DNA from: Blasia pusilla
Taxonomy: Eukaryota
DNA length: 64,000 bases
Direction: 5' to 3'
NCBI GenBank assembly: GCA_050084515.1
Contig: CM114271.1
Span: forward strand, 44,392,001-44,456,000
The first letter of the stretch is position 1. The number at the start of each line of letters is the position of its first letter. The notes under the pieces were generated by a model that was given only the letters and a program-made list of their open reading frames with translations, was not told where the DNA came from and made no database searches. Positions 32,281-56,128 of this stretch are shown in pieces. Both the position numbers and the translations under genes were made by a program.

Positions 32281-32808
32281 GACACCATGCATTTGGCAAC
32301 AAACTGCTGAACGTCAGTCTGCATGCCTGGCCACCAATACTGAATCTAGAGCAAGCTATACGTCTGCTTCACTCCAAAATGACCCAACTCCTGGTAGGCA
32401 TGACGCACCAAATGTGCTCTCTATGAAGGATGAGGCACTACACGCACACTACCGTCCTCCCACACTCGCAACACATGTGTGCCCTCCCACCGAAAGCGTC
32501 TAGCTCGCTGTAGGATCCCATCCTGCTCTCTAGCACCCATTGTGCTTGCAATGCTGCCAATATGTAGGTACTCCAAGACCATTCTATCATCTTAAATATC
32601 TCAGCCACTTGTCGTCTCCTCACCGACCTCTGGATCTAATGACTCTCCATCAGACCTCGCCATCGAAGTCTCAGCAATTTGGCTCTCCATAGCCAACAAG
32701 CCCAAATAGGCTGACACATGCCATCCTGGCAATGACTCCTCCTCATCACTCTCACCATGCCAATGAGCTCTAGTTGCATCTCGCTAACTTGGGCATGGGT
32801 TACGGCTC
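32281..32808 (-). mobile_element. Copy Y, 3' part (IN N-terminus), separated from its 5' part by insertion of E3
   Basis: Repeats the IN N-terminal sequence of 29060-29590. Ends gggttacggctc, which continues as (actc)aaacc at 50058. Confidence 0.8.
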
Positions 32809-34686: not shown

Positions 34687-36357
34687 TTGGTCATCACGGA
34701 GCTGTCTGGTGGTCGGGTTGGGGACCGTGGTGCGGACAATGGTGGTTTTACACGGAGTGGATTGAGGTATCGGCTACCTTTTCCACTTCCGAAGGTTGAT
34801 GAGGACGAGGACGAGGGTGTTCCAAACACTGAGTCTTCTACGTTGTTATCGAGTGTTGCAGCTCCATTGATTTGGGACATGGACGGGATATATGAGGCCA
34901 TGAAGGGCCCACGAGGATACTCGGGTGCAGTGGGCACCATTGAGTTGGAGGACTTCATTCAGGAGTTTGATACATGGTGTGATATGCAAATGTTGCGGAA
35001 CGCCACGTTGTTTACACCCTTCTTGGCTTGGAAGGGGTTGTTTCAGCACTTGGAGGGACCACCCATGGACGATTACCATGAGTTTAGGAGGGACCATGTT
35101 GCTGAGATTGAGGCATGGAGACAATATTGGTCTCTAGGCTATGTGTCTATCACCCATGGTGGTATTGGTAGTAGTGCTCCTACTGTGCTAGCCAACCCGA
35201 CGTTGAGTGGTACGAGTACGAGTCGGAGTGGGGGTACCAGTGGAGGTACCCATGGAGGTACTAGTGGGGGTACTAGTGGAGGTACTAGTCCCCCACCATC
35301 GTTCAGCCCGGTTGCAGAGTTCTTCGAGAGGTTGAAGAAGAACTATCAGGGAGTGAAGATAGAGAAGTTGAGGAGTCTTCAAGAATTTGAGCGAAACACT
35401 GGTGATAGTCTTCGTGAGGCATACACTCGTATGCGACGCTTGATTTCACGTACCCAGGGTGTGACTGAGGCTCAAGCAGTCCTATTTTGGTATGGGATCT
35501 TGGACAGAGAATTACGCCGCATGGTACGTGATGCTACTCTTATGAGTGATGATTCATCCACATTGCGCCATGTGTTTGCTCTATCTGAGAAGATTGAGCT
35601 TAACATGGTCGAGGAGAGAGTGGTGACATCCGCATTCAATAGGGATACAACAACTACTTCTCGTGTTCAACAGTCCACCTCACAGTCTTGTAGTAATGGT
35701 GGTGGTGGTAGTAGTAGTGGGAGTCGTGGGGGGTACACACGACCTCTGTTAGGTCCTAGAGGGACACTTGCGCAGAGACCATTGCCTTCATTTGTTGCCC
35801 CGCAGCAAGGACAGTCATGTTGGACATGTGGAGGTGATCATGTCAGGAGGTTTTGTCCCCAAGAGGATGGGAGACAAACTTTGGAGGATAGACCTCAATC
35901 AGCCCCAACTCAGTGTGATTATTGTGGGAGACCAGGTCATCCTCGAGAGCGTTGCTTTGATCTTCATCCAAAGTTGAGATCAGACCGCGGTTGTGGTGGA
36001 GTAGCTCCAAGAGGCCGAGGTGGTAAAGGTGGTAGGGGTGGTAGAGGTGGACCAGTGGTTGGAGAGCCTACGGTGGCTACCCCTACCACTACGACAAAGT
36101 CAGCTATGGCTGCCATGATTGAGCAATTGGAGCAGAGGTTGGCTAATATGGCTGGTATCCAACATAGAGCAGGTTCAGGAGCAGGGGCTTCCACCTCTTA
36201 TAGAGGGGATGATCTCTCTTATATGGCAAGTGCAGCACAGGCTGAGGCATCATCTGCAGTAACGAGAGGAACCACTCGAGCGTCAGAGCCACATGGTGCT
36301 ACTGTGGAGTTGGACCAACAGAGGGGTAAAGTTGGGAGGCATGCTAGGCTCCCCTAG
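34687..36357 (+). CDS. gag: E3 Gag (open frame, 556 aa)
   Basis: Two zinc knuckles (CWTCGGDHVRRFC, CDYCGRPGHPRERC), an RGG tract and a GGTS repeat. Homologous to the E1/Y gag (GAVGTIEL.DFI.EF..WCD). True start codon uncertain. Confidence 0.8.
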   Translation: MVITELSGGRVGDRGADNGGFTRSGLRYRLPFPLPKVDEDEDEGVPNTESSTLLSSVAAPLIWDMDGIYEAMKGPRGYSGAVGTIELEDFIQEFDTWCDMQMLRNATLFTPFLAWKGLFQHLEGPPMDDYHEFRRDHVAEIEAWRQYWSLGYVSITHGGIGSSAPTVLANPTLSGTSTSRSGGTSGGTHGGTSGGTSGGTSPPPSFSPVAEFFERLKKNYQGVKIEKLRSLQEFERNTGDSLREAYTRMRRLISRTQGVTEAQAVLFWYGILDRELRRMVRDATLMSDDSSTLRHVFALSEKIELNMVEERVVTSAFNRDTTTTSRVQQSTSQSCSNGGGGSSSGSRGGYTRPLLGPRGTLAQRPLPSFVAPQQGQSCWTCGGDHVRRFCPQEDGRQTLEDRPQSAPTQCDYCGRPGHPRERCFDLHPKLRSDRGCGGVAPRGRGGKGGRGGRGGPVVGEPTVATPTTTTKSAMAAMIEQLEQRLANMAGIQHRAGSGAGASTSYRGDDLSYMASAAQAEASSAVTRGTTRASEPHGATVELDQQRGKVGRHARLP

Positions 36358-37576
36358 TCATTCTTGTTGTCTGAGGTGCTTAGGACTCCATCCATGGTCT
36401 ACGCAGCCTATTGAGCCTACAGTGGGGACTGAGGCATCTACATCGCGTGTAGTAGACATGGATGCAGCATCCAATGCAGCATCCAATGCAGTATTGTGGA
36501 TGGCAACTTCAGTGTTGGGATCCCCATTATTTTCAGCCACTAAGTTGATGGCCTTAGGAGTTGACTTAGCTCATATATTTCAGCTAGCAGCCACGTTGTG
36601 TGAACGTGGGAGTGTTACTACTACACGTGCTGTGGTGGATGAGGGTGTTGCGATGGAGCAACCCTCTATGTCAGGTGTAGCATTGAGTACCACTACTACT
36701 TGGCAGGCAGTAGCGGCAAAGATGGATGCATTACCAGCCCGGCCAGCCATTGATTGTGAGAGGCTTACACATGGTGTATGTATGTTGGACAACCGGAGTG
36801 GGATATTCTGATTGGTGAGTCATATAGGACAGGTGTATAGACCAGATAGAGTCTTGTTAGACTTTGGTGCCCCACCTTTGATGTTGGGAAAGGCGGCATG
36901 TATTGGTTTGGGTATTCGGAGGTTAGAGCTTGAGCCTTGCCCATTCCAGATTTAGACATCACTTGGAGGAGCCAATGATAGGTCTCATTTCATGACACGG
37001 GATAAGTTTTCTATACAGTTGAGATCAGATCATGCGACTGATAGCTCCAGGTTGGGAGTACCTGCAGTGGTCACATCAGCCGAGTCGTATGATGTACTAG
37101 TTGGAGGAGCAATATTATACCCGATGGGTTTTCATATGGACTACTGGACTGAGACAGTGTCTTATAGACCTGTTTGGCAGTCTGGGGATGGACGTATGAG
37201 CCAGGTTCTTGTGAGATTTTTTTATGGGGCTCGACTAGGAGGGTCTTCCCCAACGGTGTTAGCATCTGTGGCTGGTTTTTGTGCAGTAGTCACTTGGCCA
37301 GGAGACTTTTTGGAGGGTAACCTTTCTGCTATGGGTTCTTCTATGCATGAGGAGGTAGAGGAGGTCCCTAGTTTTGCAGCAGTGGTATCCTCATCATTGG
37401 ATGTGCCACTTTGGAGTTCAAGCGGTGCACTACGGCAGGAGGCTGATCGCCTAGTGTAGGAGGCTTGGTGTAAGGCTGTTATACCTCACGAGGAAGAGGA
37501 GGCTCCATGGCGGACTCCTACTTCTGGTCCAATTGGGTTATCCCTTTGGATACTACACCCATTGTATGGCAGTATC
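36358..37576 (+). pseudogene. E3 pol, 5' part: aspartic protease region
   Basis: RVLLDFGAPPLMLGKA at ~36850 (DSG in E1) and YDVLVGG; a few stops. Interrupted at 37577 by the chromovirus. Confidence 0.8.
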
Positions 37577-38606
37577 TGTCGTGCGCCTACTCTCCTTGAA
37601 CGTTTATCTTGTTTGTTGCGAAGCGTGCGTTCAGTAGGTCACGCTCTCAACGATGATTTGCATCCAAACACGCACTTTGGTTAGTCGGGTCTTGGATCAA
37701 TCAGCGGGATTACTTTCCGAGTTCTCGTCTCGGACTCTCATCAAGCTCAACGTTCCTAGTTTTACGGTTTCCAACACGGGCAAATCCCGAAAGACTTGGG
37801 ACAGACTTTCTGGTCGGTTTAGGAAATTGAAACGGCATTTCGCGCCTAGCGGTTCCAATCGTCCGATGGACATCCAATGAGTTCCTCACCAAGACTCGCA
37901 CGAAGTGAATCTCGGGTTGGAATCCAAGTGTGGCGTACAAAGTCCACTCCCTTGGATCAGGTTTGGGTTTTGAGTTCCAACGCCAAACTCCCGTTCCATC
38001 CCGTGCCTCTGAAACGCCGTTTGGCGCCCAAAGTGGGGATTCGTTTCCCGAGACATCTCGGAGAGAATCCTCCCTTACTAGTACTTCTGGGGATCTCCGG
38101 GGGCCCCCTACATTTAGGGAAAGACACCCGGGCCTCTCCAATTGGCCCTCAACCCGATTGCTCTTTCAATCGTTTTTGGCCAATATCTCAGCCTGTACTT
38201 ATGTGTTTGCTGAGATCTTTAGTGCGTCGGAAGCGTCTCAAGATCAGCTTTCCAACGCGCCCTTATTTGTCCCAAACGCATATCGGATCTCAACGTTATG
38301 GTCTTAAACACAGTCAGATTCTCCCAAACGCTAGTGGTGTTTCAAATTGGTTCTCACCTCTTTGGCAACCAACCTCCCAAGACTCAACTCATCTCAAGTC
38401 TTGGCTCGCGTTGGGTCTAGGTTTCCAAGTCGCGACCACTAAGGCATGAAACGCACAACTCTGTTCCGCATTTCGTCTCTTAGACTTTTCCAAGAGACTT
38501 TTCCAAACGCCTCTCCAAAGCGCAAACCTTGCAGCGTGAGTTCCTTTGAGTTCTGATGTTTCGCTTGGTGCCTATTTGGTGTTGTTTGGTTTAGAGGGTC
38601 GCGACA
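37577..38606 (-). repeat. 3' LTR of chromovirus
   Basis: TGTCGTGCGCC...GGTCGCGACA, direct repeat of 43939-44969. Confidence 0.97.
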
Positions 38607-38619
38607 CTCACCCCTCCTT
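38607..38619 (-). other. Polypurine tract of chromovirus
   Basis: Minus strand AAGGAGGGGTGAG abutting the 3' LTR. Confidence 0.85.
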
Positions 38620-39299
38620 AGAAGGTTGATGTCCTCATCAACGCAAACCTTATTAATGTTAAGTTCTGGGAAGCCGACCCCTTAACACTAAATCGCGTTC
38701 TGGTAGCTAACTCGCAATTCCTCTTTTGGCTTAAGTCTTAGGTTGTCTCTTGCAGCACTTAGACTTATTAGCTTATTTTTTTCGATTAGCCTAGACCAGT
38801 TTTGCACAACTAATCTAAACTATCAAACTAAGCTCACTAAGTCTGCAACCTAACACTTCACTCACTATTTGTAAACAACCGCCTATCTACCTAGCCAACT
38901 CGTACTACTTTTGGGTCACTTATATTCCACCTAGGCGTGCACTAAGTTCAGTCATGCAACATGAATGAGATCACCATAAACCCCAAGAAAGACTCATCTG
39001 CCCCGCCGACGTTAGGGCAAGCCCAAATGCTACTACTTCAACACTTGGTCATGATCTAGATACCTTATCTGAATACAAGCTCTCACCTCAAATACTCATT
39101 GTTTGGTCTCCTTGACTTACATCCTAAGCATATGAAGAACTACTCATTGCCTTGCACAAACCAAACTCAAAATTACAATACAAGCATCGAATCTCCAAAT
39201 CCATGTCTTCTTTATTGCAACAACTAAACATTTATAGTTACAACGGGTTATCGGCCCAAGCTTTCCGGTCACAAGTTATGTCCATTGCTTCACCATGTA

Positions 39300-42200
39300 C
39301 TAACGCATGTGCCTTTCTTTCATCCATCTGATGTCACGCAATGCTTCTTGCGCGTGTTCAAGATCCGCCTCCGCAATCCAAGTCGCCTCTTTCACATGGT
39401 AGCCTTTCCACTTGACCAAGTACTCGTACTTGGTGGCTCTACGTCTCGAACGCAGAATGGTCTCAACCTCAAACTCTGGTTCCTCATTTCTGATGACCGG
39501 TTGTGGTCTCAACATCCTCCTTCGCTCCGGACGCACATTGTCTTGAAGACACTTCTTCAATAATGACACATGGAAAGTCGGGTGAATCTTGAACTTGTTT
39601 GGCAGCTCCAATGTGTACACATCCTCAAACGGCTTTGCCTTGATCACATATGGTCCAGCATACTTGGCTAACAATTTCGCGAACAATTCCTTCGGAAGAG
39701 TGAGATTCTTTCCACTCAACCACACTTGTTCCCCAACTTGGAAACTCACTTGGCGCCGACTTTTGTTAGCATGCTTCACGTACCTTAGTTGAGCCTTGGC
39801 GAGACTTTTCCTCGCTCGCTCTTGTCGTTCTTGCATTTCCACTAACAAACATTCCGCCGTTGCTTGACGAGTGTGTGTCGATGTAGCGCCCTTCGAAAGA
39901 GCTAAGTCAAGAGGCCCTTCTGGTTCTCTTTGATACGCCAGAAGAAATAGAGATTCTCCGGTTGCATAATGCTTAGTCGAGTTGTAACAATACTCAGCCA
40001 TACTTAACCACTTGGCCCAATCTCTCTGGTCTGCACTCACGTAATTCCGTAAGTATTGGTTTACGACCGAGTTTACTTTTTCCGTTTGCCCATCCGTTTG
40101 AGGATGGAAGGCCGTACTAAAGTTGAGTTTGGTCCGGAACCTCATGAATAGATGTTTCCAAAAGGCACTGGTAAACTTCGGATCTCGATCGGACACAATG
40201 CTCCTAGGCAATCCGTGCGCTCGCCACCAACCATCCAAGTATAGTCGGGAAGTCGTGTAGGCCGTCGCAGACTCTCTTGTCGGCACAAACCTCCCCAACT
40301 TGCTAAACCGATCAACTATCACAAGTATAGCATTCTATCCCTTAGATTCCGGAAGACTCGTAATGAAATCCATGCTAATGCTTTGCAAGGGTCCCTCCGG
40401 GATTGGCAAAGGATGAAGTAAGCCTTGTTTCTTTGCATAAGAAACGCAGTTCGCCTGACAGGTCATGCATGTTTTCACATATTGAGCAACATCTTCCTTC
40501 ATGTTGGGCCAGAAGAACCTTTTGGTCAAAACAGCAAGAGTGGATTTCTCCCCTTTGTGTCCCGCCAAAAGTCCATCATGACATTCCACAAACACCTTGG
40601 TCCGTAGCTTGCCTTGGCCTACATAGATCCTGCTCTGCTTAAACCTTAGCAAGCCGTGTCTCAAACTCAGATTGGCCACCTTCTCGCCCCGCTCTAACTT
40701 CCCAAGGTACTCCCTCGCTTGCGCATCCTTCATGCATCCTTCACGAATCCTTCTTTCCAGGTCTGTTTCATTAGGGAACATTGCTCCCAACACATGTGTC
40801 GTCGATGGCATGTGCTCATCCCTGCGACTTAACGCATCTGGAATGACATTGTCTTTCCCCGGCTTGTGGATTAGCTCCACATTCATCAATGCCAAGGTAT
40901 CATGCCACCGAAGTTGCTTTGGCGTTACGCGATCCTCGGTCTCAAAATACTTGAGCGATATGTTATCGGTGAATACTTGAGTCCTGTGAAGTCCCAGATA
41001 GTGACGCCACTCCTCAAGCAGTGAACCACCGCAAACAACTCTTTCTCATGAGTAGGCCATCTCCTTTCAGTGTCGCTAAGCTTCTTGCTCTCGTATGCAC
41101 CAACATTCCCGCAATCGCGAAATCACTAGCATCTGTGTGCACTTCGAACGGTTGGTCAAACTCTGGCAATTTCACAACTGGCGCCTGCGAGAGGATCTCT
41201 TTGACTCGATTGAACGATTTATCCACTTCCTCGATCCATGTAGTATTGGCAAACTTTGCGGTCCAATCCGTGAGAGGTTTCACTATTCCCGAAAAGTTCT
41301 TCACGTATGTCCGGTAAAACTGGACTGCTCCGATGAACCTTCTCATCCCCTTCACCGTGGAAGGCGGTTCCAATTCGGCAATTGCGCTTACCTTCTCCAT
41401 GTCTCGACTCACTCCATCCGCACTAACCACATGCCCCAAGAACTTGATCTTCGTCAAACCGAACTCACTCTTATCCGCATTCGCATACAGCTTGCTCGCC
41501 CTAAGTTTCTCAAACACCGTCTTCAAATGTCGAGCGTGCTCCTCTAGTGTTTTCGAATATATGAGTATGTCATCTATATAGATGATCACAAACTCATCCG
41601 TGTCCTTATGAAAGATGGAGTTCATCAAAGTGCTAAACGTTGGAGGCGCATTACAAAGACCAAAAGGCATCACCACAAACTCAAACGAACCGTATCTCGT
41701 TCTACACGCAGTCTTCTCTACATCCGCTTTGGCAATCCGAATCTGCTAATATCCTGATTTCATGTCAATCCGGATGAAATACTTGGCACCCAAAAATCGA
41801 TCAAAGAGGTCATCCATCCTTGGTAGAGGATAGTTGATCCTTACCGTCACTTTATTCAGCGCTCGATAATCAACACAGAGTCTCAACTTCCCATCCTTCT
41901 TCTTTACAAAGAGGACGGGTGCCCCATAAGGTGACTTGCTTGTTCGGATGTAAACCCTCTCTAGGAGTTCACCCAAATATTTCTTCAACTCAGCAAGTTC
42001 CTCTTGATTCAACCTATATGATGCTTTTGAAGGTGGTTGAGATCCTAGTATCACCTCAATCTTATGATCAACCGCCCTATGTGGTGGCAACTCAGTCGGA
42101 AGCTCCTTAGTCAAAACATCTCCAAATTCTTTCACAACTCTTTTGAGTGTTTAAGGGATTCCCCTTGAAGCTGAGTTCTGATCTCTGCATCTCGCGCTTG

Positions 42201-43850
42201 CATCATCCTCTACTTGTCTCATCAAGCAAAGGAATCCTTCCTCTAACTCGGCCAAACTCGTCCTCGTGATGGCGTTCACCAACTCCGTCTCCCTAGGCAC
42301 CTCACGAACCAATATGACGTCCGTCCGTTTTCCGTTAACCAAGATGCTCAACCTCAAAGGTCTTCGCCTCAGTTCTACCTCATACGCATCCAAGAACGTG
42401 TTCCCCAAGACTCCGTCGATACCGTCCATGTCGCAAACTGTGAAATTCTCCTTCAACTCAAATACTCCGCATCTCACAACTAGCCCTAAAACCATATCTG
42501 AAGTTTGGTGGGACTTGCCTCCCGCGAATCCTACCCTAATGGGTTCATCCGTCTTGGTGGTTGGTAATCCCAACGTTGTCACAATTCTCGGACTCAAGAA
42601 TGAGTGCGAAGCACCTGTATCAACGAGCAACATCACATCGCGATTAGCGATCCTCGATCCTAGGTAAACCAAATTGGGCGTTCTCTTGGTGACTTGTAGA
42701 GATGTATCTAGATCTCCCTCCAATAAATGCTTAGCGGCAAATGCAATCATACTCGGTTTACTAACCTTGGGCCTAACACATTCCTTAGCCATATGTCCGG
42801 GTTTGCCACAGTTGTAGCAAATCACTTTGGCATTCGTTGACTTCGTAAACGGCGGCCCTTTTGGCTTTGCGTTGATTTCCACTCGTTTCGCTGCTGGGGC
42901 AAGAGACCCTACGTGGTCGCGCTCACCCCCATTCCAAAACCCTCTTGGATGTCCCTTTGTTTTTCAGAAACTTAGAAAAACTTTTTGGCTCAAAGGGTTT
43001 CGGGTGTTGGACTTCATCGTCCCCAATCCGCTCTGCTAGTCTCAAAAGATCCGCGCACGTCTCTGGGATGTGAGGCATACAAAAGAGGGCCTTTTTGGCA
43101 CTCGGTTTGAGTCCACTTAGGAAGATCACCTTTTTTGTATGTTCATCCGTGGAAAGTGCACTCATGAGTGCACTAAACTCTCGCACATAAGCGCCAAGGG
43201 ATCCACTCTGGCGCAACCTCACCACCTCCATGCCATCGCGATAGTCCTGATATTCCGGAGTGAATCGGTTCCCAATCAACTCCTTGAAATCTTCCCAACT
43301 CAATGTTTTCCCACGACCTAGATGTTCTTTACGGTGAGCCGTCCACCAATGGAGAGCGTGATCCTTGAAACGTGACGCTCTGATCACTTTGTCTTGTTAA
43401 ATGCTCCGCTTTTGCGCTTCGAAATAAAGTTCACTTTCCGAGAACGCCCCATTCTTGTGAATGGCATAGGCAAATTAGTCTTACAAAGCTTCTTGCCGGA
43501 ACTAGAGGCTCCATTTGACTTGAATTCTCATATCACCTTGCTCTGTTCGGCCATCTGGTCCGCCATCACCTTCATCAATCCCATCATTTGGATATAAAAG
43601 GCCGGATCGTTTAAGTTTGGACCCAAAGGTCCCGCGGAAAGATTTTCGGTTGGAACATCCTCATGTCTGGGACTCGGCACTTTGGGCGTCGCAAATTCCA
43701 CCTCTGGCTCTCGGTCCGTCATTGATTCGTCCCTCGACTTTTTTGCTTTGACTCGCGATTTCCTCGGTTCTTCGCCTTTGGTCGCCATTTGCGAGTCTTC
43801 GCTTTCTCAGATCTCCTCCTCGCCTCTTGCGTTCCTCCTCGGCATCGTGG
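39300..43850 (-). pseudogene. Chromovirus gag-pol (Gag, CCHC, PR, RT, RNase H, IN, chromodomain) with a few stops/frameshifts
   Basis: CYNCGKPGHMAKEC; LLVDTGASHSF; YIDDILIYS; VHTDASDFAI; HDGLLAGH..CMTCQ; IVSDRDPKFTS; GPY; chromodomain EFEVETILRSR...YEYLVKWKGY..EATW. Confidence 0.93.
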
Positions 43851-43924
43851 TCTTCCGGCTACCTTGAGTTCTCCCCAAACGTCCAGATCTTCAACGACCC
43901 CAAGTTCATGCTCAACAAGGATAA

Positions 43925-43936
43925 GCTCTGATACCA
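43925..43936 (-). other. Primer-binding site complementary to initiator tRNA-Met
   Basis: Minus strand TGGTATCAGAGC, 2 nt inside the 5' LTR. Confidence 0.95.
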
Positions 43937-43938
43937 CG

Positions 43939-44969
43939 TGTCGTACGCCTACTCTCCTTGAACGTTTACCTTGTTTGTTGCGGAAGCGTGCGTTTAGTAG
44001 GTCACACTCTCAACGATGATTTGCATCCAAACACGCACTTCGGTTAGTCGGGTCTTGGATCAATCAGCGGGATTACTTTCCGAGTTCTCGTCTCGGACTC
44101 TCATCAAGCTCAACGTTCCTAGTTTTGCGGTTTCCAACACGGGCAAATCCCGAAAGACTTGGGACAGACTTTCTGGTCGGTTTAGGAAATTGAAACGGCA
44201 TTTCGCGCCTAGCGGTTCCAATCGTCCGATGGACATCCAATGAGTTCCTCACCAAGACTCGCACGAAGTGAATCTCGGGTTGGAATCCAAGTGTGGCGTA
44301 CAAAGTCCACTCCCTTGGATCAGGTTTGGGTTTTGAGTTCCAACGCCAAACTCCCGTTCCATCCCGTGCCTCTGAAACGCCGTTTGGCGCCCAAAGTGGG
44401 GATTCGTTTCCCGAGACATCTCGGAGAGAATCCTCCCTTACTAGTACTTCTGGGGATCTCCGGGGGCCCCCTACATTTAGGGAAAGACACCCGGGCCTCT
44501 CCAATTGGCCCTCAACCCGATTGCTCTTTCAATAGTTTTTGGCCAATATCTCAGCCTGTACTTATGTGTTTGCTGAGATCTTTAGTGCGTCGGAAGCGTC
44601 TCAAGATCAGCTTTCCAACGCGCCCTTATTTGTCCCAAACGCATATCGGATCTCAACGTTATGGTCTTAAACACAGTCAGATTCTCCCAAACGCTAGTGG
44701 TGTTTCAAATTGGTTCTCACCTCTTTGGCAACCAACCTCCCAAGACTCAACTCATCTCAAGTCTTGGCTCGCGTTGGGTCTAGGTTTCCAAGTCGCGACC
44801 ACTAAGGCATGAAACGCACAACTCTGTTCCGCATTTCGTCTCTTAGACTTTTCCAAGAGACTTTTCCAAACGCCTCTCCAAAGCGCAAACCTTGCAGCGT
44901 GAGTTCCTTTGAGTTCTGATGTTTCGCTTGGCGCCTATTTGGTGTTGTTTGGTTATGAGGGTCGCGACA
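43939..44969 (-). repeat. 5' LTR of chromovirus
   Basis: TGTCGTACGCC...GGTCGCGACA. Confidence 0.97.
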
Positions 44970-44979
44970 CTATCCGCTG

Positions 44980-45930
44980 GAGGGTATTTGTGTATTAGAT
45001 CTCTTTGGTGGGATAAGCTATGGTTTGGCTGCAGTGTTGTAGGACGGTACTCCTGTGCGGAGATACGTGTATGTGGAGCAAGATGAGACGGCCTAGAGAG
45101 TCTCATCCAGACATATTGGTCAGTTGATGCGGAGATATCCTGAGTTGTTGCCACTATCAGCTTTTCGTGGGTACCGACGTGCTTAGCCGTCACACATTGC
45201 ATTGTTGGGGGCGTAGGACCTTGAGAGGATTGGTTGTGTGGATTTGGTGATTGCTGGATGGCCATGTCAGGGTCATACACATGCTGGTCGTGATGAGGGA
45301 TGACACGACCCTAGGTCTCGATGGTTTTGGGAGATGTTACGGGTGTTATGACATCTTCAGGTTCATTAGGCACGTGCTCCACCTTACATTCTGGAGAAGG
45401 TTCCATTCTTGGGTGACACTCGGACCCAGATGATGGCGAGTGTTCATGAGGTGCGGTCTTGGATTGGACCAACGATGTTGTTGGATGCAGCACGAGTTGG
45501 CTCGCGTGCACATCGTCCACACTTGTGGTGGAAAAACTTGTTGCCTAGGGAGGTTCTACGTTGAGCATATGATGCAATCCAGTGAGATCCTTGCCTTGCA
45601 GTGGATAGTATCTTGGATACTGGGCGACTTTCTTAGGTGGTGAGGGTTATTGATCGGTCACCCATGACAGTGGTGAACCGTGTGGGCCAGCCTAGGATGG
45701 CACTACCCACATTTTTGAGTTTTCCCTCGTCACATGCCTACAGGGAAGGTGGTCACGGGCTTGTATGGGATTCTCATGTGCGACTGTTGGTGGAGCCTAA
45801 CGCTGATGAGAGAGAGTGTGCTATGGGATTTGCTACTGGTGTGACAGCGGTTGCTTCCATTTCTGAGGCTTCACGACGTCATGTGTTACTTCAGGCCATG
45901 GACCTAAATTGTTTGACCTGGATTTTGAGT
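44980..45930 (+). pseudogene. E3 DNMT3-like C5-cytosine DNA methyltransferase domain (within pol)
   Basis: Motifs in canonical order: ICVLDLFGGISYGL (I), YVYVEQD (II), DLVIAGWPCQGH (IV, catalytic PC at 45262-45267), YILEKVP (VI; ENV in other copies), LDAARVGSRAHRPHLWWKNL (VIII), ERECAMGF...SRRHVLLQAMD (IX/X). Several in-frame stops. Confidence 0.88.
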
Positions 45931-46208
45931 CTTGGTATGGCCGAGCAGCGTCGACTTTGGACCATGTCTATGGATCTTCCACCCCTTGTGATGAGCTCGA
46001 TGGCTATTGGGACACTAGAGACATTGGCTGGGGGCAAGGAGAATAGTATTTTGCATCCTTAGAGTAAATGGGATGTAATGGCTGGGCATGTGGAGTTCGT
46101 TGCTCATGCTGATGGAGGAGTTATTTGCTCAAATGATGGTGTAGCTAAGGGTGTACCATCTTGTGAGGGGATTGCCTAGCAGCCAATGCGTCGTCCTCTC
46201 CCTCTAGT

Positions 46209-49200
46209 GTGCCAATGGAGGAGACTTGGGAGCCATTACTTGGGCCCAAGCTTACGGGAGGTGAGAAACGACGCTTGACACAGTTCCTACGTGCTTATAG
46301 GAGTTGTTTTGCCATTAGCATGAAGGAGTTGGGTGCTTGGGTTGGACCCGGTATACAGATTGATTTGGCTAGTGATATGCCAATCTTTCATCGTCCCTAC
46401 CGATATAGTGATATGGAGAGGGACCTGATTCAGAGTAGGACGTTGGACCTTTTAGAGGCTGGATTAGTGGAGTTGTCGCATGGAGAGTATGCGCCAACCA
46501 CTGTCATGCCTGCTAAAAAGGATGTGCATGGCAACTACATGGATAGGTGGATGTGTGGAGATTATTGTCCTATCAATCGGCAGACCAAGGCTGATAAGTA
46601 TGCCATGCCTACACCTGAGGAGATCTTTGATGTGGTGGGACAGGCAAAGATTTTCAGTAGTTTGGATCTTTGGGGAGGATACCATCAGTTGCCGATTCGA
46701 GAGAGTGACAAGGCCAAGACAACATTTTGGGGTGTCAACTCTCATGGCAAGTATTGTTTGTACCAGTGGAAATTCTTACCCTTTGGGTTGAAGAATGCAC
46801 CTGCCGAGTTTCAGAGAGTGATGGACAAGATCCTAGCAAGGTTGGATTTTGTTTGGTGTTACATTGATGATATCTTGGTGTTCAGTAACACGGTGGAGGA
46901 GCATCAGATAAATTTGCATATTGTGTTTGAGCGGTTGAAAGCTCATGGTCTACGTTTGCATCCAGGAAAGTGTAAGTTCTTCCATGAGGATGTTGAGTAC
47001 TTAGGTCATGTGATCTATCCAGGTGGTTTGGGAGTTCATCAAGCAAAGGTGGAGGCTATTGCACTTATTCCTCATCCGGTAGATGTGAGTAGAGTTCAAG
47101 CATTCATGGGATTGGCGAACTACTATCAGAGGTATGTGAAGAGATTTAGTGCTATGGCCAAGCCTTTGAACCAATTTCTGAAATCGGATGAGGAGTGGCA
47201 TTGGGGAGATGATCAAGAGAGAGCTTTTGTGGAGCTCAAGGCCCAGTTGGTGGCGGCGCCTATCTTGAGGAGACCTATTAGAGGGCGCCTATTTCAGTTA
47301 CACACTGATTGGAGTAGGTTGGGACTTGGAGCGGTGTTGACACAACATGATGATGAGCACATGGAGTTTGTGGTGGCCTATGCAAGTTGTTCGAATAATG
47401 CAACGGAGTCGCGCTATAGTTAATATGAGGGAGAGTGCTTGGCAGTAGTGTGGGCTGTGGCACACTTTAGGTGTTACTTGTTTGGCACACAGTTTACCCT
47501 TGTTACTAATCACCAGCCGCTCAAGTGGTTGATGGAGTGTGACAAGCTTACAGGGAAGCTTGCACGGTGGGCTCGTATCTTTCAGGAGTATGACTTCCAG
47601 GTGGTACATAGATCTGGAGTTGCAACCTTGATGCTGATGGGTTGAGTAGGAACCCATGTACTAGCCAAGAGGATACAACTGGGGCTAGATGGCATGGTGA
47701 GGTTGATGAGGAGATGGTGCCGGGTTGGCATGCATCTGCCTTTTTATGTTGGTTAGGGGTGGACTCTAGTATGGAGGACCACATGATATCTTACTCTAGT
47801 CAGACGGTAGATGGCGAGTCTTTAGATCCTAAGGTTGGAGATGGTGGTACGGATCAGCGTGATATTCATGATGATGCGTTGGTGTTGGAGTTCCTATTGA
47901 CCAGTAGGGTGCTAGACATAGTGAGTGCCAAGGAGCAAGACCGTGTTCTTCAACGTGCTAGGAGGTATCGATTGGAGGAAACACATATTCTTCTTGTGTG
48001 GGAGGATGGTAGAGTACGAGTGGTGCCGCATTTGGCTCAGAGAGAGCGCATTGTGCGACATGCTCATGAGGAGTTGGGACATTTTGGGGTAAAGCGTACG
48101 TATAGCTTACTCCTTGGCCAATATTGGTGGCGTGGCATGCATACTCAAGTGCAGCAGTTGGTATCACATTGTATGGTTTGTGACCGGGTGAGGGCATCAT
48201 TCAATGCACCTACACCACAGTTACACCCATTGCCTATTATGGGGTTGGGTTACCGTTGGAGTGTGGACTTTGCGGGACCGTTACCGTTGACTGTACGACA
48301 TTATCGATATGTGTCGGTGATAGTGGAGCACTTCTCCAAGTGGATTGAGTTGGTGGCATACCTAACAAGGCAAGTGAGGGAACCGCGTATGCGTTTCTTG
48401 ATAGAGTGCTTAGTCATTTTGGTGCACCAGCTGAGGTGTTGACCGACCAGGGTATAGAGTTTCAGGGTGAGTTTCAGGTCTTATGTGACAAGGTGTTGAT
48501 TGATCATCAGACCACGTATCGAGATCATGAAGAAGCGGATGGTTTGGCTGAGCGTGTGGTTCAGACGGTGAAGAGGGCATTGCGCAAGTATGGCCTACAA
48601 AAGGGGCATCTTGGAGACTGGGATATTCAGTTGCCATGGTTAGCCATGGGGTTTAGGTTTAGTCGCCAAGCATCCTTGGCTTCCTTCTCACCTTATTTTC
48701 TGTTATACGGCCGAGATCTAGACTTGCCAGCAACAATTCGTCGGGAGTCTAGTGAGGTGGTGAACCTTGATGACCCAGAGATGTGGATGAGAGTGTGTTC
48801 TCATTAGGCAGAGCTCTTTCGGAGAGTTATGCCAACAACCTTTGAGAATCTTGCCATTGCTCAACATAGGGATACGTTGCGGTATGCAACCATTCGGGAT
48901 GGAGGTTATTGGCCATCGATTTGTAGGTTCCATATGGGGGACTATGTCTATTTGCAGCAGATTGCACCGACAACGTTGGATGTGACGGCAGGCCGCACTA
49001 TTTTACGAGTGCGCAAAGTGTTAGCTTATGGAGTTCTTGTGTTGGAGGGTTGTGATGGCGTTGTTTGGAAGGACCATGTGCGTAATTGTGCCCCATGCCA
49101 TCTTCCAAATGTGGATGGTACTATTGATCCAAGCTTAGCCATGATACGTGCTAGCTTGAGGTGTATGTTGTGTGGGTCTGCTGGTAACGCAGCTCGTATG

Positions 49201-49302
49201 TTGGTGTGTGATCGGTGTTCTAGGGGTTGGCACATGATGTGCTTGACTCCATGTATGGATGTTGTTCCTACTGGAAGGTGGATTTGTTCTCGATGTACTT
49301 AG
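46209..49302 (+). pseudogene. E3 pol, 3' part: RT - RNase H - DDE integrase - PHD finger
   Basis: LPFGLKNAP, YIDDIL, LHTDWS; HAHEELGH..CMVC zinc finger, WSVDFAGP, LTDQG, DGLAERVVQTVK; terminal C4HC3 CMLC...LVCDRCSRGWHMMCL...WICSRC at ~49162-49296. Confidence 0.92.
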
Positions 49303-50057
49303 GAGGGATAGATGACTTGATCTTTGCATGATATGGATTACAGATGTGCGAGTAACGATGGGGCAACCTAGCACCCGGCCTTCTGATTGGTGCACCCACG
49401 AAGGTGTATAGCATGTAGTAGATGTATATGGCTACTTGGGAGTTAGAGGGACCTAACCGCCAGTTAGAGGGGTGAGTTTTGGTACACTTGTGTTTGTGGA
49501 TGCTCTCGTCTATGTTATCTATGTATGTGATTAAGGTTTGTCAACAATGTATGTTGTACGACGATTTGGATTCGCACGACAGGTGTCATGACCATACGGA
49601 TTATGTCGTAGAGTATAGTCTGCTAGTAGAGGCCGTACCTTATGTAGGGACGTAGTGTCTAGGTAGAGATGCGGTTTCATACATAGGGTTGGGGGTTACT
49701 CCGTTGAGGGTGACTTTTCCAGTAGGGCCCGCTCTTAGGTTGGAGGATATAGTGTGGAGTGCACTCAAAGAACAGACAGTTCTTTGAGTTGAGCATGTTG
49801 CGTTGGGAGTTAGCCTTGGTAGTGAGTAGAGCTCTTGGCTATGGTGGTTCCCGCAAGCTTCGCCCTGGATTCTCCAATCGTGGAGTGGATTTGGCTCGAT
49901 TGTATGTGATTCTATATGTGTTTTATGACAGTAGGTCTTTCACGGATTTTAGTTGTGGTACACTTGTGTTTGTGGATGCTCTCGTCTGTGTTATGTATGT
50001 ATGTGAGTATGGTATGTCAGTGATGTATGTTGTATTATGATGTGGATTTGCACGACA

Positions 50058-53000
50058 ACTCAAACCAGCTGTATCCAGGTTGAGCGTCCCAGATCTATGC
50101 ACCACATGGAAGTTATAATTCTGCAACAAAAGAGCCCACCTTGCAAGCTTCCCCTCTAAGCTTGTCGGACTCCATCAACCACTTAAGTGGCTAATGATCA
50201 GTAATGACGATAAAGGGATTGTCGAATAGATAACATCTGAAATGTGCTACAGCCTACACTGCAGCCAAGCACTCACCCTCATTCGAGCTATACTTACCCT
50301 CATCGCATCAAAGATCTTCTCAGGGATGGGCATGGCATACCTATCGGACTTTGTCTCTTGATTGATAGGTTGGTAATCTCCACACATCCGTCTATCCGTC
50401 CAATTGCCATGCACATCCTTCTTGGCGGGCATGACAGTGGCAGTTGCATACTCTCCATGCGACATCTCTACTAGTCCTGCTCCAACCAAGTCCTGGCTCC
50501 TACTCTGAATCACAGCCCTCTCCATGTTTTGTACCTATAGGGTCTTCGAAAGATCGGTGTGTCACTCCACAACTCAATGGAGATCCTGGACCCTTCAGCG
50601 TACCCAAATCATGTATACTAAATGCAAAACAACTCCTATAACTCCTAAGGAATTGGTGTATCCGACGCCGCTCTACTCCTATCAACTTAAGGCCCATATC
50701 TGGCTCCCAAGTCTCCATCGTGACTACGATAGGACTCTCCGGTACGAATGTCGGTGGTTGTTATGGTGCAACCCCGTCTCAGAAAATAGAACTCTCATCT
50801 CCACGTGCAGTACCCGGAACCACGCTTGATGTTGTGGCTATCATCTCTTGGCATACATACAAAACATCCCAAGAAGTCCAAGGGTGTGTCTCTCGATCAC
50901 CCCTAGTGTGTTGATCTCCTTGGGTCTTGCCCCTAGCCACTGCCCCAACTGTCTCTGTAGGCATGGGGCTCACCAACGCAACAACTGTGATCTGTCACAT
51001 CCTCAAACGATGCTGCTCAGCTACTACTAAGCTGAAATCCATTTCAAGCAATTCAAGTCCATCGCCTAATCCAAGACATGACGTCATGATGCATTCAATA
51101 GTGACGATACTGTCGTCACTCCTGTGGGGAATCCCATCGCTCGCTCTCGCTCATCGGCGTTGGACTCCAACAACCTCTGTACTTGGTCATCCCAAACCAA
51201 GCCAGGTCCGCCCATAGGAAGCGGGAAAACTCACAAATGTGGGAAAGGCTGCTCATGGCATGCCAATCCTCTTGACCACAATCAATAGCGGTTGATCATT
51301 GTGCCTCACTGTCTATGATCGACGGCCCGGATCCAATGTAGAATCCACCAACAAATCGGAGGGATGCTCCACTCTCGCATAAGCCCTCCGCAACACCTCA
51401 TGTGGTACCAAGTTGGTCCATAAAAGACGCGGGCATTGTGCTCTAGAACCTACACTCGCCGCATCTAACAACATTGCCGTGCCGATCCATGCGCGCACTT
51501 GATGTGCACTCGTCACCATGCGGGACCTCGAATTGCCCAAAATTGGCACATTCTCCAAAATATATCCTGGACAATGAGGTTGATGCTCATGTAAATGTCG
51601 CAAGATCCGCATCATCTCCCAAAACAACCTCAACCGAGCGTCAGCTAACCCGCTACCTCGTCCAACACTCGATTAGCCCTGACACGTCCAACCAGCAATG
51701 ACAAAGTCTATGGTCCCTACCCGCTCCAAGTCATGCGCCCCCTACAATAAAATATCCCTTGGTAGTGAACTGTGGGAACCCTAAATGGCGGACGCTGACA
51801 ACAAGTTGGGAAAACGGAGGCGTATTAGCACCACATGGTGAAGTGAAGCGTGCCTCACAACATCATCAATCTCCACATACACATACTGCTGCACGCGCAC
51901 TCCAGCGTGCAAAAAAGCAGCTAACCTAGTGTTCATCCCTCCAAAGAGATCCAACACTCGAATTCCCTCCTTTGGGATGCACCACACAATCAGGGTGGTG
52001 TCCAAAGGGGTCATAGCAGCACTCTTGCCTACCAGGGGTTCCTCTGACCCGTCACACTCTAGTGCAAACGTCTCGCTCCACGCGGTCTACACATGCTCAA
52101 TGGCTAAGCGTCGAAGCTCCTCAGTCGAGCCCCAAAGCACTGCTCTCCTCCATAGACAAATGCGGCTACCATGACACTCCTCTTCATGGAAATGTCAAGA
52201 ACGGGAATATCCTCTGCATAGACATGTCCCTCAATCAAATCACTAGGCCAAGTGATGGCACTGCTAAATGCTGCTAAGGTCGCCATCTCTCCAGGCCGTC
52301 ACTCGATCACTGCACCTATCAATCGAATGGGTAATGAGCTAAGGCACCCATCACTTGACTGCCATCCTGGTCTGTAGGATGCTGACTCTTCCCAATAATC
52401 CAGGGAAAACCCCATTGGGTATAACACTGCTCCACCAACCAGACGTCGTAGGACTCTACATCAATCACTATCCCCTTGGCTTGTACCACGGACTCATTTG
52501 TAGGATGTCCCGGCGAATCCTCACCACGACCTCCTGTCACGTGATATATTGTGTGGAACTCGCTCCACCCAAGGATGTCTGTATCCGGAATGGACAATGC
52601 TCCACATCGGCTCTCGTCAAGCCCAATCCTCTGAATGACGCTTTCCCCAACATCACGAGTTGCGCTCTTGAATCCAATAAGACATGCTGCGAATTAAAAG
52701 CTCTACCTCTAGGATTCACCAACAGGAAGACCTCTCCCTGGTTATCAAGCGACACAACACCAGAAGCCATGGCACGCTCGATCGTGGATCTAGCGAGCAT
52801 CTCCGCCATCCTAGTAGCCGCAGCCTACCATAAATTTGAAGTGGACGGCCTGGGCATCCGCTCCAAGGGCAGATCCATCACCTCCTCTGCAATCACCTAT
52901 GAATGTGATGCAAGAACTCCAACTCCATGCTCATATAGTGTAGCGTCCAACCGAAAAACCTTGGCGGGCATACCTCCCAATGTCATAACATCGGAAGCAG

Positions 53001-55260
53001 AAAATAAAGAAGCGCGATACAAAACAGTGGCCGCCCCCACCAACGTGCTCGACACATGCCCCTCTTGAGCATCAAGAATAGGAGTCGTCGCACTCGCTTC
53101 TCCCATCGCCCTCTGTGCCTGCACACCAAAAGCATCACCAACTCTCTAGGAACTCTGATCAGGACCCATCGATGGGGTCCTCATTGCCTTGGACAACGTG
53201 AAAAATTGAGGAAGCATGGTCTGTTTTCTAGCTTCATTTAGCTGTGGATCCAACTCAGCGGCTTCTCCACGCGTCAAAATTGCGGCGGCCTCCATTTGGG
53301 CAACCCCGCACATCCAACCAGGATCCTCCATATCTTTGGTTCCTCCATATGATGTCGATGCCATGGATGTGGCATCGGGTAACCTCAATGCCACAACGGC
53401 AATCTGCTCTTGTAGCTGCTGTATGTGATCAGCCATCCGAGCCTCACGTCCGACGTCTCCCTTGATGCGTCTAGGTGGTGAGACTCTACCTCCTCCACGT
53501 GCAGCTCCACCACCCTGTCGGGAAACTCCAACTCCTCGTCTCCCAACAGGACCACCTGGTGCACGACCTCTAGCCCCACTTGGACCGGCTACTCGCTCTG
53601 GTGTCCTCTCTGACCCTCGGTCCGATTGTAACTCAGGATATAAATTGAAACACCTGGCGCGTGTATGACCATACCTCTGAAAATGGTCATACTGATAACC
53701 TCTTGTTGCAGCACCATCTCCTCCTCCATGCTAAGGCACACGTCCATGACACTAACGAGTGCAATCGCGTTGATGATGAGCTCCACCACATGACCAACAA
53801 GTAATAGTAGGCGACTGCTGCTGAGCCACATATGAAGGTGCAGGTCTCTATGGCACGGCCTCTTGCTATCCTCCCTCAGTCGTGGTGCCACAATCAACCT
53901 ATCTCGGAGTCCATGTTGCTGCACAGGTGGTGCATATCATCGTGACTGCTCTCACCCAGAACCCATGGTGGCTACGCTCTCCTCTGCCATGTTGCGCTCA
54001 ATGTTCTCGGCGGTCCTAAAAACATCTCTCAAAGTAGGGGAGGTGTTCATAAGCACCCAACTTCTCCGTCCATACCCCTTGGTAGCTCACCCTCAACTCA
54101 GCAAATAACTCAACCACGGGGTTGAACCTCGGACGAACCTGACTAGATGGTGCAACTGCTCCAATGCGAGTGACCCCTCCTAAAACATCACTAGTGGAAG
54201 AGGAAGTAGCCTCTCCTAACTCCTCCTCCTCATCTGGGAACGGCTCCGTCTATGACACATAGTGTGGGTCATAGTAGAGTCGCCATGCCTCAATCTCCTG
54301 GGCATATCTGTGGGAGAACTCATGGTAATCGTCCATGGGCACCCCCTCCAAATACTAGAACATACCTTTCCATGTTGTAAACGGGTTGAACTCTCTAGAG
54401 TTCCTAGTCCGCTCTGAGTCACACCAACTCCTAAACTCTGCAATGAAGTCTTGTAGCTCTATAGTGCCTACAGCACCCGAAAATCTACGCGGTCCTCTAC
54501 CGCGGTCATCCATCTCGTACGCCCAACTGGCAGGACCACTCAATGTGTACAGTGGGTCACTAAAACACTCCTCTACATGCTCACTCTCATCTGAAGATGA
54601 TACAGAAGGAGATTGAGGTGGTCTCTCACGTGGAGACCCTCGAAACCTCGCACCACTCCAGGTAAACCCTCTAGAGCTACTCTCAGGTCCACTACCTCGC
54701 CTCTCAAAATCCCAAAAGGACGCGGTGATGGCCCTCGTGCCCCTCTCATACCATCACTCTCAATCTCGTGAGTAATCCCTCAATCACTCAAACTAAACAT
54801 TCGGCACTCAATCTCCACTCTCTCACTGAGACGTGTATTGTGCGGCAACAAGCAGCGTGGTGCGGAAAATCAACCGATCTATTGTCTCATTGACAAACCA
54901 TCCTCAACTCTGGACATCCCACACAGGTCTATGTATCCTAAAACCATAGATCATCCATGCTACTAGCATTAACACGAAACCCAATATCCCAAATAACTTC
55001 CCAATATCCGGAAATCCCTCACACGTGCAAGGTAAGAGACCAGAATGGGTAACCTGACAATAATGTGGATATTGCTCGTCGGCAACTGCAAATCTCGACC
55101 CCAACTTGGTCATGAAGACAACTCCTCTAATCAGCAAATCGTACTCCTCTCGTACCGACGTTGCTCGATCCTTCTCGATTTATGGTGCAAGTCCAACTGT
55201 TCGATGCGGCACTAGCGGCACGGAACGGCTACAAATGGCACGGCACTCGGCGGCATATCC
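50058..55260 (-). mobile_element. Copy Y, 5' part: E1-family 5' UTR, gag, PR, DNMT, RT (mostly deleted at ~50297), RNase H tail
   Basis: Reverse-complement homology to E1 3930-8900. DNMT motifs IRVLDLFGGM (ORF 51781-52014), DFVIAGWTCQG, YILENVP and RAQCPRLLWTNL (ORF 51313-51633). Confidence 0.88.
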
Positions 55261-55269
55261 TCCTCAATG

Positions 55270-55570
55270 AGAAATTTACATGCTCTGCACCTTAGTGAAG
55301 GAGCGCACAAGGTCATTCCAAACCATATCATCGCGTCCCTCCAATAAGAGAACATCACGTGGCAAAACCTCATGCTCTCTCAAGATAGTGCGCCTTGCAA
55401 TCACATCCAACATCGTGGGTACCGTCTGTTGCAAGTAGATATAATCTCCCTAATAAAACCTCCAGATAGTCGGTTGATAACCATCTCCCTGAATAGTCGC
55501 ATACCTCAACGAACCCTGATGTTGCGCAATCGCCAAGTTCTCAAACGTCATGGGAATCACTCTAGACCTC
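55270..55570 (-). mobile_element. Isolated integrase C-terminal fragment of the same group
   Basis: Reverse complement matches 10120-10390 (FENLAIAQH..LRYATI..GDYIYLQQ..VWNDLVR). Confidence 0.7.
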
Positions 55571-56128
55571 TGAATTAATATTATATATTTTAATTAGAAA
55601 AGAATTAACTTAATTAAGAATATTTTTTTAATAAATTAAAAATTCAAATGGAAATATGAGGAAACGATTTCCCTTTAAAAAATTGGACTATTTAAATATT
55701 AATTAAAAAAAACTTTTAAAAAATTGGAGAAATATCTAGGTTGTAAAAAGTTGAACATGTTCTAATTAAGACGTTAGTAGTATGCAAATGTATTCTTTCT
55801 TGAATTCTATATGCAAACTCTAATTCTCTTGATAAATAATTTACATTCCAATTCAAAGCATATATAACTTTGATAACAAATTTCTCATCTAGTGTGTAAA
55901 TAGAGGATACAATTTTGATTTTTCCATACTTGAAATGATTGACACAAGGGATTTTTTTTATATGCGCTTATGATTATATTTATAATGTAGGCTTCAATTG
56001 TTTATAAATAGTGATTGACGATATCCTATTGACAATAGGAATACAAATTCAATTTAGACAAAAATGCCACAAAAATATATCCATGTAATGCTTACTTAGG
56101 TCTAAATTTTCAAAGTTGGATCATATAC

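Follow-up and report, generated by a model that had tools for sequence, protein, structure and literature searches.

How does a DNA (cytosine-5)-methyltransferase domain come to stand between the protease and the reverse transcriptase of a retrotransposon, and what might it do there? The question is raised by a 64,000-nucleotide stretch of Blasia pusilla contig CM114271.1 (positions 44,392,001 to 44,456,000; hereafter the window, to which all coordinates refer), in which an initial annotation, made from the letters of the DNA, had noticed a DNMT3-like catalytic domain. Here we identify this domain as part of a decayed copy of a Ty3/Gypsy element of the Gypsy-DNMT3 kind, belonging to a branch whose nearest named kin are in liverworts and Sphagnum, and we put the probability of this identification at about 0.88. 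The presence of the methyltransferase domain is itself confirmed and is far beyond chance. The focal element spans 32811-50057 and has the layout A1 - leader - Gag(CCHC)-PR-DNMT - UAG - RT-RNase H-IN-PHD - B1-A2-B2, where A and B are repeats, PR is the protease, RT the reverse transcriptase and IN the integrase.

The domain occupies 44972-46059 of the forward strand, and was analysed by translating the frame that runs from base 44701 with X at stop codons (protein P0001). Read in that frame, it contains motif I as VLDLFGGIS (44992-45018), YVEQD (45070-45084), motif IV as GWPCQ with its catalytic Pro-Cys intact (45256-45270), motif VI as ILEKVP, in which the ENV of other members has become EKV in the focal copy (45388-45405), motif VIII as SRAHRPHLWWKNL (45502-45540), and motifs IX-X as ERECAMGF (45808-45831) and RRHVLLQAMD (45874-45903). 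The initial annotation had described these motifs as standing in canonical, non-permuted order, and all of them do so within the one shared frame. The family assignment is borne out by Pfam: translated with X at the stops, the focal copy reaches 26.8 bits with PF00145 (E 4.3e-6), above the cut-off of 22.

Comparison with proteins of known structure points to the DNMT3 enzymes as the closest relatives. A phmmer search of the PDB returned DNMT3A first (E 5.9e-7), colinear with the query over positions 11-221, with DRM (E 0.005) and M.HhaI (0.06) ranking below it. A family profile (A1) made from 18 members was then compared with all PDB sequences, and again matched DNMT3A best (74.5 bits, E 6.8e-20) in a colinear alignment that pairs positions 34-219 and 309-339 with chain residues 8-173 and 238-268. 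Lower ranks were taken by DNMT3C and DNMT3B (~66 bits), by the DRM enzymes of tobacco (46) and Arabidopsis (37), and by Dnmt2 (29) and M.HhaI (28.6); no DNMT1 or CMT chain appeared among all PDB sequences at E values up to 0.01. The fold tells the same story. P0002, an intact protein of the family with 76% identity to the focal copy, was modelled with AlphaFold at a mean predicted local distance difference test score (pLDDT) of 78.3 and a predicted template modelling score (pTM) of 0.83, and the matches listed by Foldseek for this model against the PDB, to rank 50, are solely DNMT3A, DNMT3B and DNMT3C chains, with E values from 3.9e-18 and template modelling (TM) scores of ~0.8 on target length for chains of the catalytic domain. 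Matches in the ESM Atlas fall in generic C5-methylase clusters, phage ones included, and say little about the subfamily. In an alignment of 18 relatives from which the focal copy was left out (A2), the Pro of Pro-Cys and the Glu of ENV (E183) show no variation, and next to none is seen at the Cys and at the Asn (N184); motif IV Pro-Cys and motif VI ENV are intact in relatives. With DNMT3A at the top of the sequence and profile searches, DNMT3 enzymes filling the fold search to rank 50 and DRM aligning by one half of its length, these results support the view that the domain is DNMT3-like and not permuted, as the wording of its motifs had been taken to indicate, and the predicted structure of the relative agrees with this.

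The domain had also been described as inserted between protease and RT, and its surroundings agree: in a single Gypsy element, Gag-PR precedes it, and RT, RNase H, IN and PHD follow. For the upstream parts of open reading frame 1 (ORF1), the map comes from tblastn, the query being the complete Marchantia protein P0115 (Mp_4g09160, 1278 amino acids). Gag, which begins ORF1 and contains two CCHC knuckles, lies at 34879-36396 (P0115 residues 1-488, 65% identity), and is followed at 36398-37576 by the protease region (tblastn map 36398-37501; residues 487-851, 61% identity). Here the reading frame is split, just upstream of DNMT motif I, by a nested younger Gypsy element on the reverse strand (37577-44971; Pfam Chromo, SH3_Tf2-1, rve, Asp_protease_2 and zf-CCHC), a chromovirus by virtue of its chromodomain, whose long terminal repeats (LTRs) at 37577-38608 and 43939-44971 measure 1033 nucleotides and are 98.9% identical. 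The match to P0115 resumes at ~44972. The 3' LTR of the nested element runs up to and includes base 44971; the left edge of the DNMT domain is not a natural domain border, and marks no more than the point at which the older element continues. Downstream of the domain follow the native ORF1 stop, UAG (46177-46179), with a frameshift just beyond it; RT and RNase H (46167-47660; RVT_1 106 bits, RT_RNaseH 110 bits); an integrase made of an H2C2 zinc domain and a DDE core, with one frameshift (47612-48807; Integrase_H2C2 60.5 bits, rve 24 bits); and a C-terminal extension of the integrase that ends in a PHD finger (48808-49302; Pfam PHD 36.7 bits, cut-off 24). All of these features of the focal element are on the forward strand.

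The ends of the element carry an arrangement of repeats that is not that of two identical LTRs, although other features of Ty3/Gypsy ends are present (TG..CA termini, a short target duplication and a purine tract). In the window the order is A-coding-B-A-B, with A1 (the 5' terminal repeat, 32811-33174) and A2 (49586-49949) forming a pair of 364 nucleotides at 96.2% identity, and B1 (49475-49581) and B2 (49951-50057, which closes the element on its 3' side with ...CACGACA) a pair of 107 nucleotides at 86.9%; the purine tract AGAGGGGTG stands directly before B1. When ten long metagenome loci were checked for such split direct repeats, the A pair was present in seven, and in four of these ten (L035, L039, L045 and L051, which cover two subfamilies) the B pair flanked A2 as well. 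The window element and these four loci share further details, in that A starts with TGTCATG and B ends with CACGACA, termini that form an inverted, if imperfect, pair of the TG..CA type, the purine tract immediately before B1 is rich in G, and the gap between B1 and A2 consists of two variable bases. Target duplications of 4 base pairs flank the four loci (CATA for L051 and L035, which occupy the same site, GGTC for L039 and CCAA for L045), and the flanks in the window, GCTC and ACTC, agree at three of four bases. The insertion is of the integrase type, and the split repeats of the element are DIRS-like.

Relatives place the element in a family that is large and, among named hosts, bryophyte. 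A scan of JGI (Joint Genome Institute) metagenome contigs matched at least 600 stretches, at least 243 of which encode a relative; 80 loci were kept, and the 43 longer than 7 kb were mapped for domains. The order Gag-PR-DNMT-RT-RH-IN-PHD (RH being RNase H) was found in all 43, and the metagenome loci fall into three classes by identity to the focal copy (~55-70%, ~45% and ~33-42%). Protein searches gave 112 matches of near length (E 3.6e-162 to 1.4e-17) and 27 longer ones, and every species name in both is that of a bryophyte: Marchantia polymorpha (many proteins, 58-70% identical), Calypogeia fissa, Riccia sorocarpa and four species of Sphagnum. When 1.84 billion cluster representatives were searched with a profile, 14432 were returned at E<=0.001, 2648 at 1e-10 and 517 at 1e-30, the last figure indicating a large family; the best 150 representatives listed are all proteins of the family type at 255 bits or more, and host DNMT3 is absent among them. 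In one DNA run, ~99,000 contig pieces match 44972-49474 (4.5 kb) at 85% identity or more, so that the family must be highly repeated in the organism of that run. Three further runs, which were presumed to be RNA but may contain DNA, gave 34, 65 and 21 contig pieces over DNMT and pol at the same identity threshold, and are no firm sign of expression.

A second architecture surrounds a homologous enzyme. Protein P0139 has the order RNase H-DNMT-IN-PHD, and a search with its DNMT collected 219 proteins of 804-2561 amino acids, mostly RT-RH-DNMT-IN-PHD, among which the sole species name is that of the chlorophyte Haematococcus lacustris (two proteins, P0244 and P0250); a few others bear EukProt labels and one is labelled from a bacterial metagenome bin. 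All 381 proteins collected have a DNMT match, and they divide into 57 with PR-DNMT or DNMT-RT, 185 with RH-DNMT or DNMT-IN and 139 with DNMT alone, a split that reflects the choice of queries and not natural frequency. In a quick maximum-likelihood tree of the DNMT domain (89 rows, with type I represented by 30 of its 32 domains, type II by 45 of 184 and the unlabelled group by 10 of 56, all taken at random, and with a few chosen named proteins and the focal copy added), with support from the Shimodaira-Hasegawa-like approximate likelihood ratio test (SH-aLRT) only, the two architectures are parted by one branch (SH-aLRT 94), and the focal copy groups with Marchantia and Calypogeia proteins and with P0002 at 99% support. 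In DNMT elements of the bryophyte type and of the algal type alike, the integrase ends in a PHD finger and not in a chromodomain.

The position of the domain relative to the stop codon alters one part of the original description, which had made the enzyme part of Pol. At 58 DNMT-RT junctions compared, a single stop in the RT frame occurs at the same aligned place in 22 of 25 class-1 and both class-2 junctions (among loci L001-L035 and L051), the remaining three of class 1 being frameshifted. The context is UAG (twice UAA) CAA CCC in class 1, UAG CAG UUA in class 2 and UAG CAG CCA in the window. Two Marchantia proteins, P0114 and P0115, also terminate at this site, and the long Marchantia proteins (1248-1278 amino acids) consist of Gag-PR-DNMT and end after the DNMT. 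The intact locus L027 has an ORF1 of 1369 amino acids, then one in-frame stop, then an ORF2 of 1047 amino acids. By these reading frames, the DNMT of the focal subfamily is the C-terminal domain of ORF1 (Gag-PR-DNMT), followed by a conserved in-frame UAG before RT-RH-IN; lying upstream of the UAG, it would be made with Gag and not only as part of Pol. Leaky stops of the tobamovirus type have the readthrough motif UAG-CAR-YYA, with which UAG CAG UUA and UAG CAG CCA agree; more broadly, the bases after the conserved stop follow CAR-YYN and are reminiscent of plant-virus leaky stops.

Patterns of substitution bear on how the domain fared in the history of the family. By the Nei-Gojobori method, with stop codons skipped, the focal copy compared with L003 and L005 gives a rate of nonsynonymous substitution (dN) of 0.19, a rate of synonymous substitution (dS) of 0.65-0.71 and a ratio of the two (omega) of 0.27-0.29, and the intact pair L027 and L029 gives an omega of 0.15 at a dS of 0.25. 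Class medians for the DNMT are 0.54 (153 of 171 pairs usable) and 0.35 (629 of 703), close to those for RT in the same two classes (0.45 and 0.32). The initial annotation had held that a ratio near 1 across subfamilies would speak against the domain; between subfamilies dS is saturated for most pairs, and where dS is useful omega lies at 0.15-0.29, well away from 1. The DNMT domain was thus kept by purifying selection, about as strongly as RT.

The focal copy itself is a fossil with no present function, and is unable to make any enzyme. Between 44974 and 46176 its frame is interrupted by 11 premature stops, 10 of them inside 44972-46059 and another at 46060-46062. At seven of the 10 stops within the DNMT, intact relatives have a codon starting with C (CAA, CAG, CGA, CGT or CGG), the pattern expected from C-to-T decay. 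The protease region carries three stops, lies in another frame than Gag, has DFG in place of the active-site DSG, and gives no Pfam protease match. Three neighbouring copies of the family in the window are dead as well.

Several points count against the account given so far, or narrow it. The focal rve core scores 24 bits, under the Pfam cut-off of 32.6. Most relatives are dead, with a stop-free DNMT in five of 58 single-piece regions (L003, L005, L027, L029 and L039) and stop-free RT regions in three of 19 in the metagenome loci. Near-identical class-1 copies (dS ~0.06) have omega values of 0.5-0.9, which we attribute to decay after insertion. The third subfamily (class 3, e.g. L039; 36-42% identity) is without the ORF1 stop at its 31 junctions, 12 of which are stop-free, and the commonest stop context, UAG CAA CCC, agrees in part only with the CAR-YYA motif. 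The label 'DNMT3-like' comes from best hits and not from a tree that includes host DNMT3, DRM, DNMT1 and CMT; in the same way, it is a common architecture and common repeats, and no tree, that tie the family to the published element KnitGypsy-Dnmt3 of Klebsormidium nitens. Lastly, when the Klebsormidium Gypsy DNMT was assayed in yeast no DNA methylation was seen, the assay being inconclusive, according to the passages on it in PMC5890265.

What might such an enzyme do for its element? Both the element kind and the idea, also put forward in the initial annotation, of a packaged enzyme that methylates the element's own cDNA or its insertion site have been in print since 2018, when a DNMT3 domain was described in a Gypsy element of K. 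nitens (KnitGypsy-Dnmt3), with DIRS counterparts in Symbiodinium (de Mendoza et al., 2018; PMC5890265); the kind was later named 'streptophyte Gypsy-DNMT3' (bioRxiv 10.64898/2026.05.21.726589) and is mentioned in a passage of PMC12344493. In the parts of the 2018 paper drawn on here, purifying selection on the transposon DNMT domain is reported, the Symbiodinium DIRS enzymes methylate CG de novo in yeast, and methylation by the elements of the DNA retrotranscribed from them is proposed as a possibility. Applied to the present family, the scheme would run as follows. In intact members translation would mainly give Gag-PR-DNMT, and would now and then continue through the UAG to yield the fusion with RT-RH-IN-PHD; with Gag-PR-DNMT as the main product, the DNMT would travel with Gag into the particle. 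We tentatively favour, at somewhat less than even odds, a role in which the enzyme so packaged methylates the element's own complementary DNA (cDNA) or its fresh insertion de novo. The PHD finger of the integrase may read a histone tail in the choice of insertion site, as the chromodomain would in chromoviruses, and the PHD end of the integrase suggests histone-guided insertion.

Two other roles seem to us less probable than methylation of the element's own DNA. It is formally conceivable, but in our judgement unlikely, that the enzyme acts on host chromatin, marking or selecting targets together with the PHD finger or spreading methylation near insertions and so shaping the insertion neighbourhood. 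The pairing of a DNMT with a PHD finger of the histone-reading type in one element, in both architectures, is what such a role would call for, and the copy number in the DNA run described above is very high; against this, the methylome of K. nitens, a host of such elements, is of an ordinary, plant-like kind (PMC5890265). Still more doubtful is the idea that the domain acts on RNA, placing 5-methylcytosine (m5C) on genomic RNA, or serves as a non-catalytic nucleic-acid-binding module that ends Gag-PR. Its place at the C-terminus of the Gag-containing ORF1 is the usual site of nucleic-acid-binding functions in retroelements, RNA methylation is raised for LINE-borne DNMTs in a passage of PMC5890265, and the inconclusive yeast result for the Klebsormidium enzyme would fit. 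The catalytic residues are kept family-wide, however, as alignment A2 makes plain; the nearest enzymes are the DNA methyltransferases DNMT3A and DNMT3B and not Dnmt2 (74 against 29 bits); and, in the relevant passages of PMC5890265, the SymbioDIRS-Dnmt3 enzymes methylate CG in DNA. The reading of the domain as a host DNMT3 gene or pseudogene merely caught among transposon fragments, as might happen in a nest of broken elements where chance neighbours are common, is refuted by the recurrence of the PR-DNMT-RT order and frame in dozens of independent loci and in Marchantia, Calypogeia and Sphagnum proteins, by the intact two-ORF element L027, by the presence of four copies in the window and by the lack of introns.

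These strands can be drawn together in a single evolutionary scenario, which as a whole is rather unlikely to hold in every part and is offered as speculation. The elements would be the land-plant branch of an old, pan-green-lineage Gypsy clade that carries a DNMT3-type enzyme and an integrase PHD finger; in the bryophyte branch the DNMT would have moved once, from the junction of RNase H and integrase to the end of Gag-PR, where it would be made at the level of Gag, ahead of a UAG that leaks as the stops of plant viruses do. On this scenario such elements might supply bryophyte genomes with de novo methylation activity from a source so far hidden, and might confound counts of 'DNMT3 genes'.

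The surroundings of the focal element are those of a transposon nest. Copy A (4712-10592, forward strand) belongs to the same family and another subfamily; it has NWTYQG at motif IV, keeps ENV, contains several stops and gives no PF00145 match. Copy B (28256-32359, reverse strand) retains the C-terminal third of the DNMT (31576-31217), and copy D (50301-54519, reverse strand), truncated inside RT, has GWTCQG at motif IV, an intact ENV and stops, and scores 33.4 bits with PF00145. None of copies A, B and D has an open frame, and an intact Pro-Cys together with ENV in an open frame was found in none of the focal copy, A and D. Over their DNMT regions (A, 7261-7929, forward; D, 51214-52086, reverse) copies A and D form one subfamily at a dS of 0.38, and in each of them the proline of motif IV is replaced by Thr (TYQ and TCQ), a change that may predate insertion. 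An ORF at 13047-13769 (reverse strand) is Helitron-like, its score with Helitron_like_N (28.8 bits) lying just under the cut-off of 28.9. The nested chromovirus is complete and young, with largely open ORFs, and has a CpG observed/expected ratio of 0.92, against 0.42-0.55 in the DNMT-bearing element that hosts it. The coding strand is rich in G and T, with a GC skew of +0.18 to +0.26, over 2000-10600, 32800-38000 and 45000-50000 (forward) and over 28000-32000 and 50000-56000 (reverse). Strand-specific deamination was considered as the source and rejected: the intact L003 shows the skew (0.23), L027 shows it weakly (0.11) and L039 lacks it, and its presence in an intact locus marks it as a compositional trait of a subfamily and not of decay.

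For annotation it matters that predicted 'DNA (cytosine-5)-methyltransferase' proteins of bryophyte and algal genomes are often transposon ORFs. A retrotransposon that carries the class of enzyme by which it is normally silenced is a rare reversal of the conflict between host and transposon. Experiments so far concern Symbiodinium and one charophyte; the kind is abundant in liverworts and mosses, including the annotated Marchantia polymorpha genes Mp_4g09160 and Mp_8g17980, and these are tractable hosts.

Among known enzymes, the domain is most like the catalytic domains of mammalian DNMT3A and DNMT3B (PDB 2qrv, 6brr, 6u91 and others), in its best sequence and fold matches, in its motif order and in the short stretch between motifs VIII and IX. 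It differs from them in identity, which is ~20-23%, in lacking PWWP and ADD, and in being fused to Gag-PR. Plant DRM2 (PDB 4onj, 7l4c) ranks next below the DNMT3 chains in the profile search, but is circularly permuted and for this reason matches through its C-terminal half alone (~residues 228-351), which aligns to the N-terminal half of the element's domain at 37-46 bits. Chromoviruses, such as the one nested in the focal element, resemble it in having a chromatin-reader type of domain at the C-terminus of the integrase, although the reader of the focal element is a PHD finger and not a chromodomain. The green-algal RT-RH-DNMT-IN-PHD Gypsy elements (e.g. P0244 and P0250) have a homologous DNMT (35% identity, E 7.5e-54 to P0139) and a homologous IN-PHD (39-44% identity), and thus share the PHD-ended integrase, but carry the DNMT between RNase H and integrase where the focal type has it after the protease.

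Two published systems, compared here through the relevant passages of PMC5890265, come closest. The SymbioDIRS-Dnmt3 elements of Symbiodinium likewise have a DNMT3-type domain in a retrotransposon polyprotein and A-coding-B-A-B repeats, but are DIRS elements with a tyrosine recombinase, whereas the integrase of the focal element is of the DDE type and includes an H2C2 zinc domain, and TG..CA ends and 4-base-pair duplications go with it. KnitGypsy-Dnmt3 agrees with the focal element in being an LTR Gypsy of a streptophyte host, with a non-permuted, intronless DNMT3-type domain in the polyprotein, A-coding-B-A-B repeats (Figure 4c legend of that paper) and purifying selection on the DNMT. The closest named hosts of the focal family, by contrast, are bryophytes (Marchantia, Calypogeia, Riccia and Sphagnum), and no Klebsormidium-named protein is found among the near-length, longer-protein and P0139 search matches. 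In the text of the 2018 paper the words Marchantia, liverwort, Sphagnum and PHD have 0 occurrences, and the literature passages on KnitGypsy-Dnmt3 make no mention of an ORF1 stop, a PHD finger or 4-base-pair duplications; nor did a literature search, in the parts of papers it covered, find one that names such elements in liverworts or mosses or describes the ORF1 stop or PHD finger, although supplements may list copies. What the present family adds to the published elements is thus kin in liverworts and Sphagnum, a DNMT placed upstream of a conserved UAG, an integrase that ends in a PHD finger, a sister architecture that abounds in green algae, and omega values of 0.15-0.29 for the methyltransferase.

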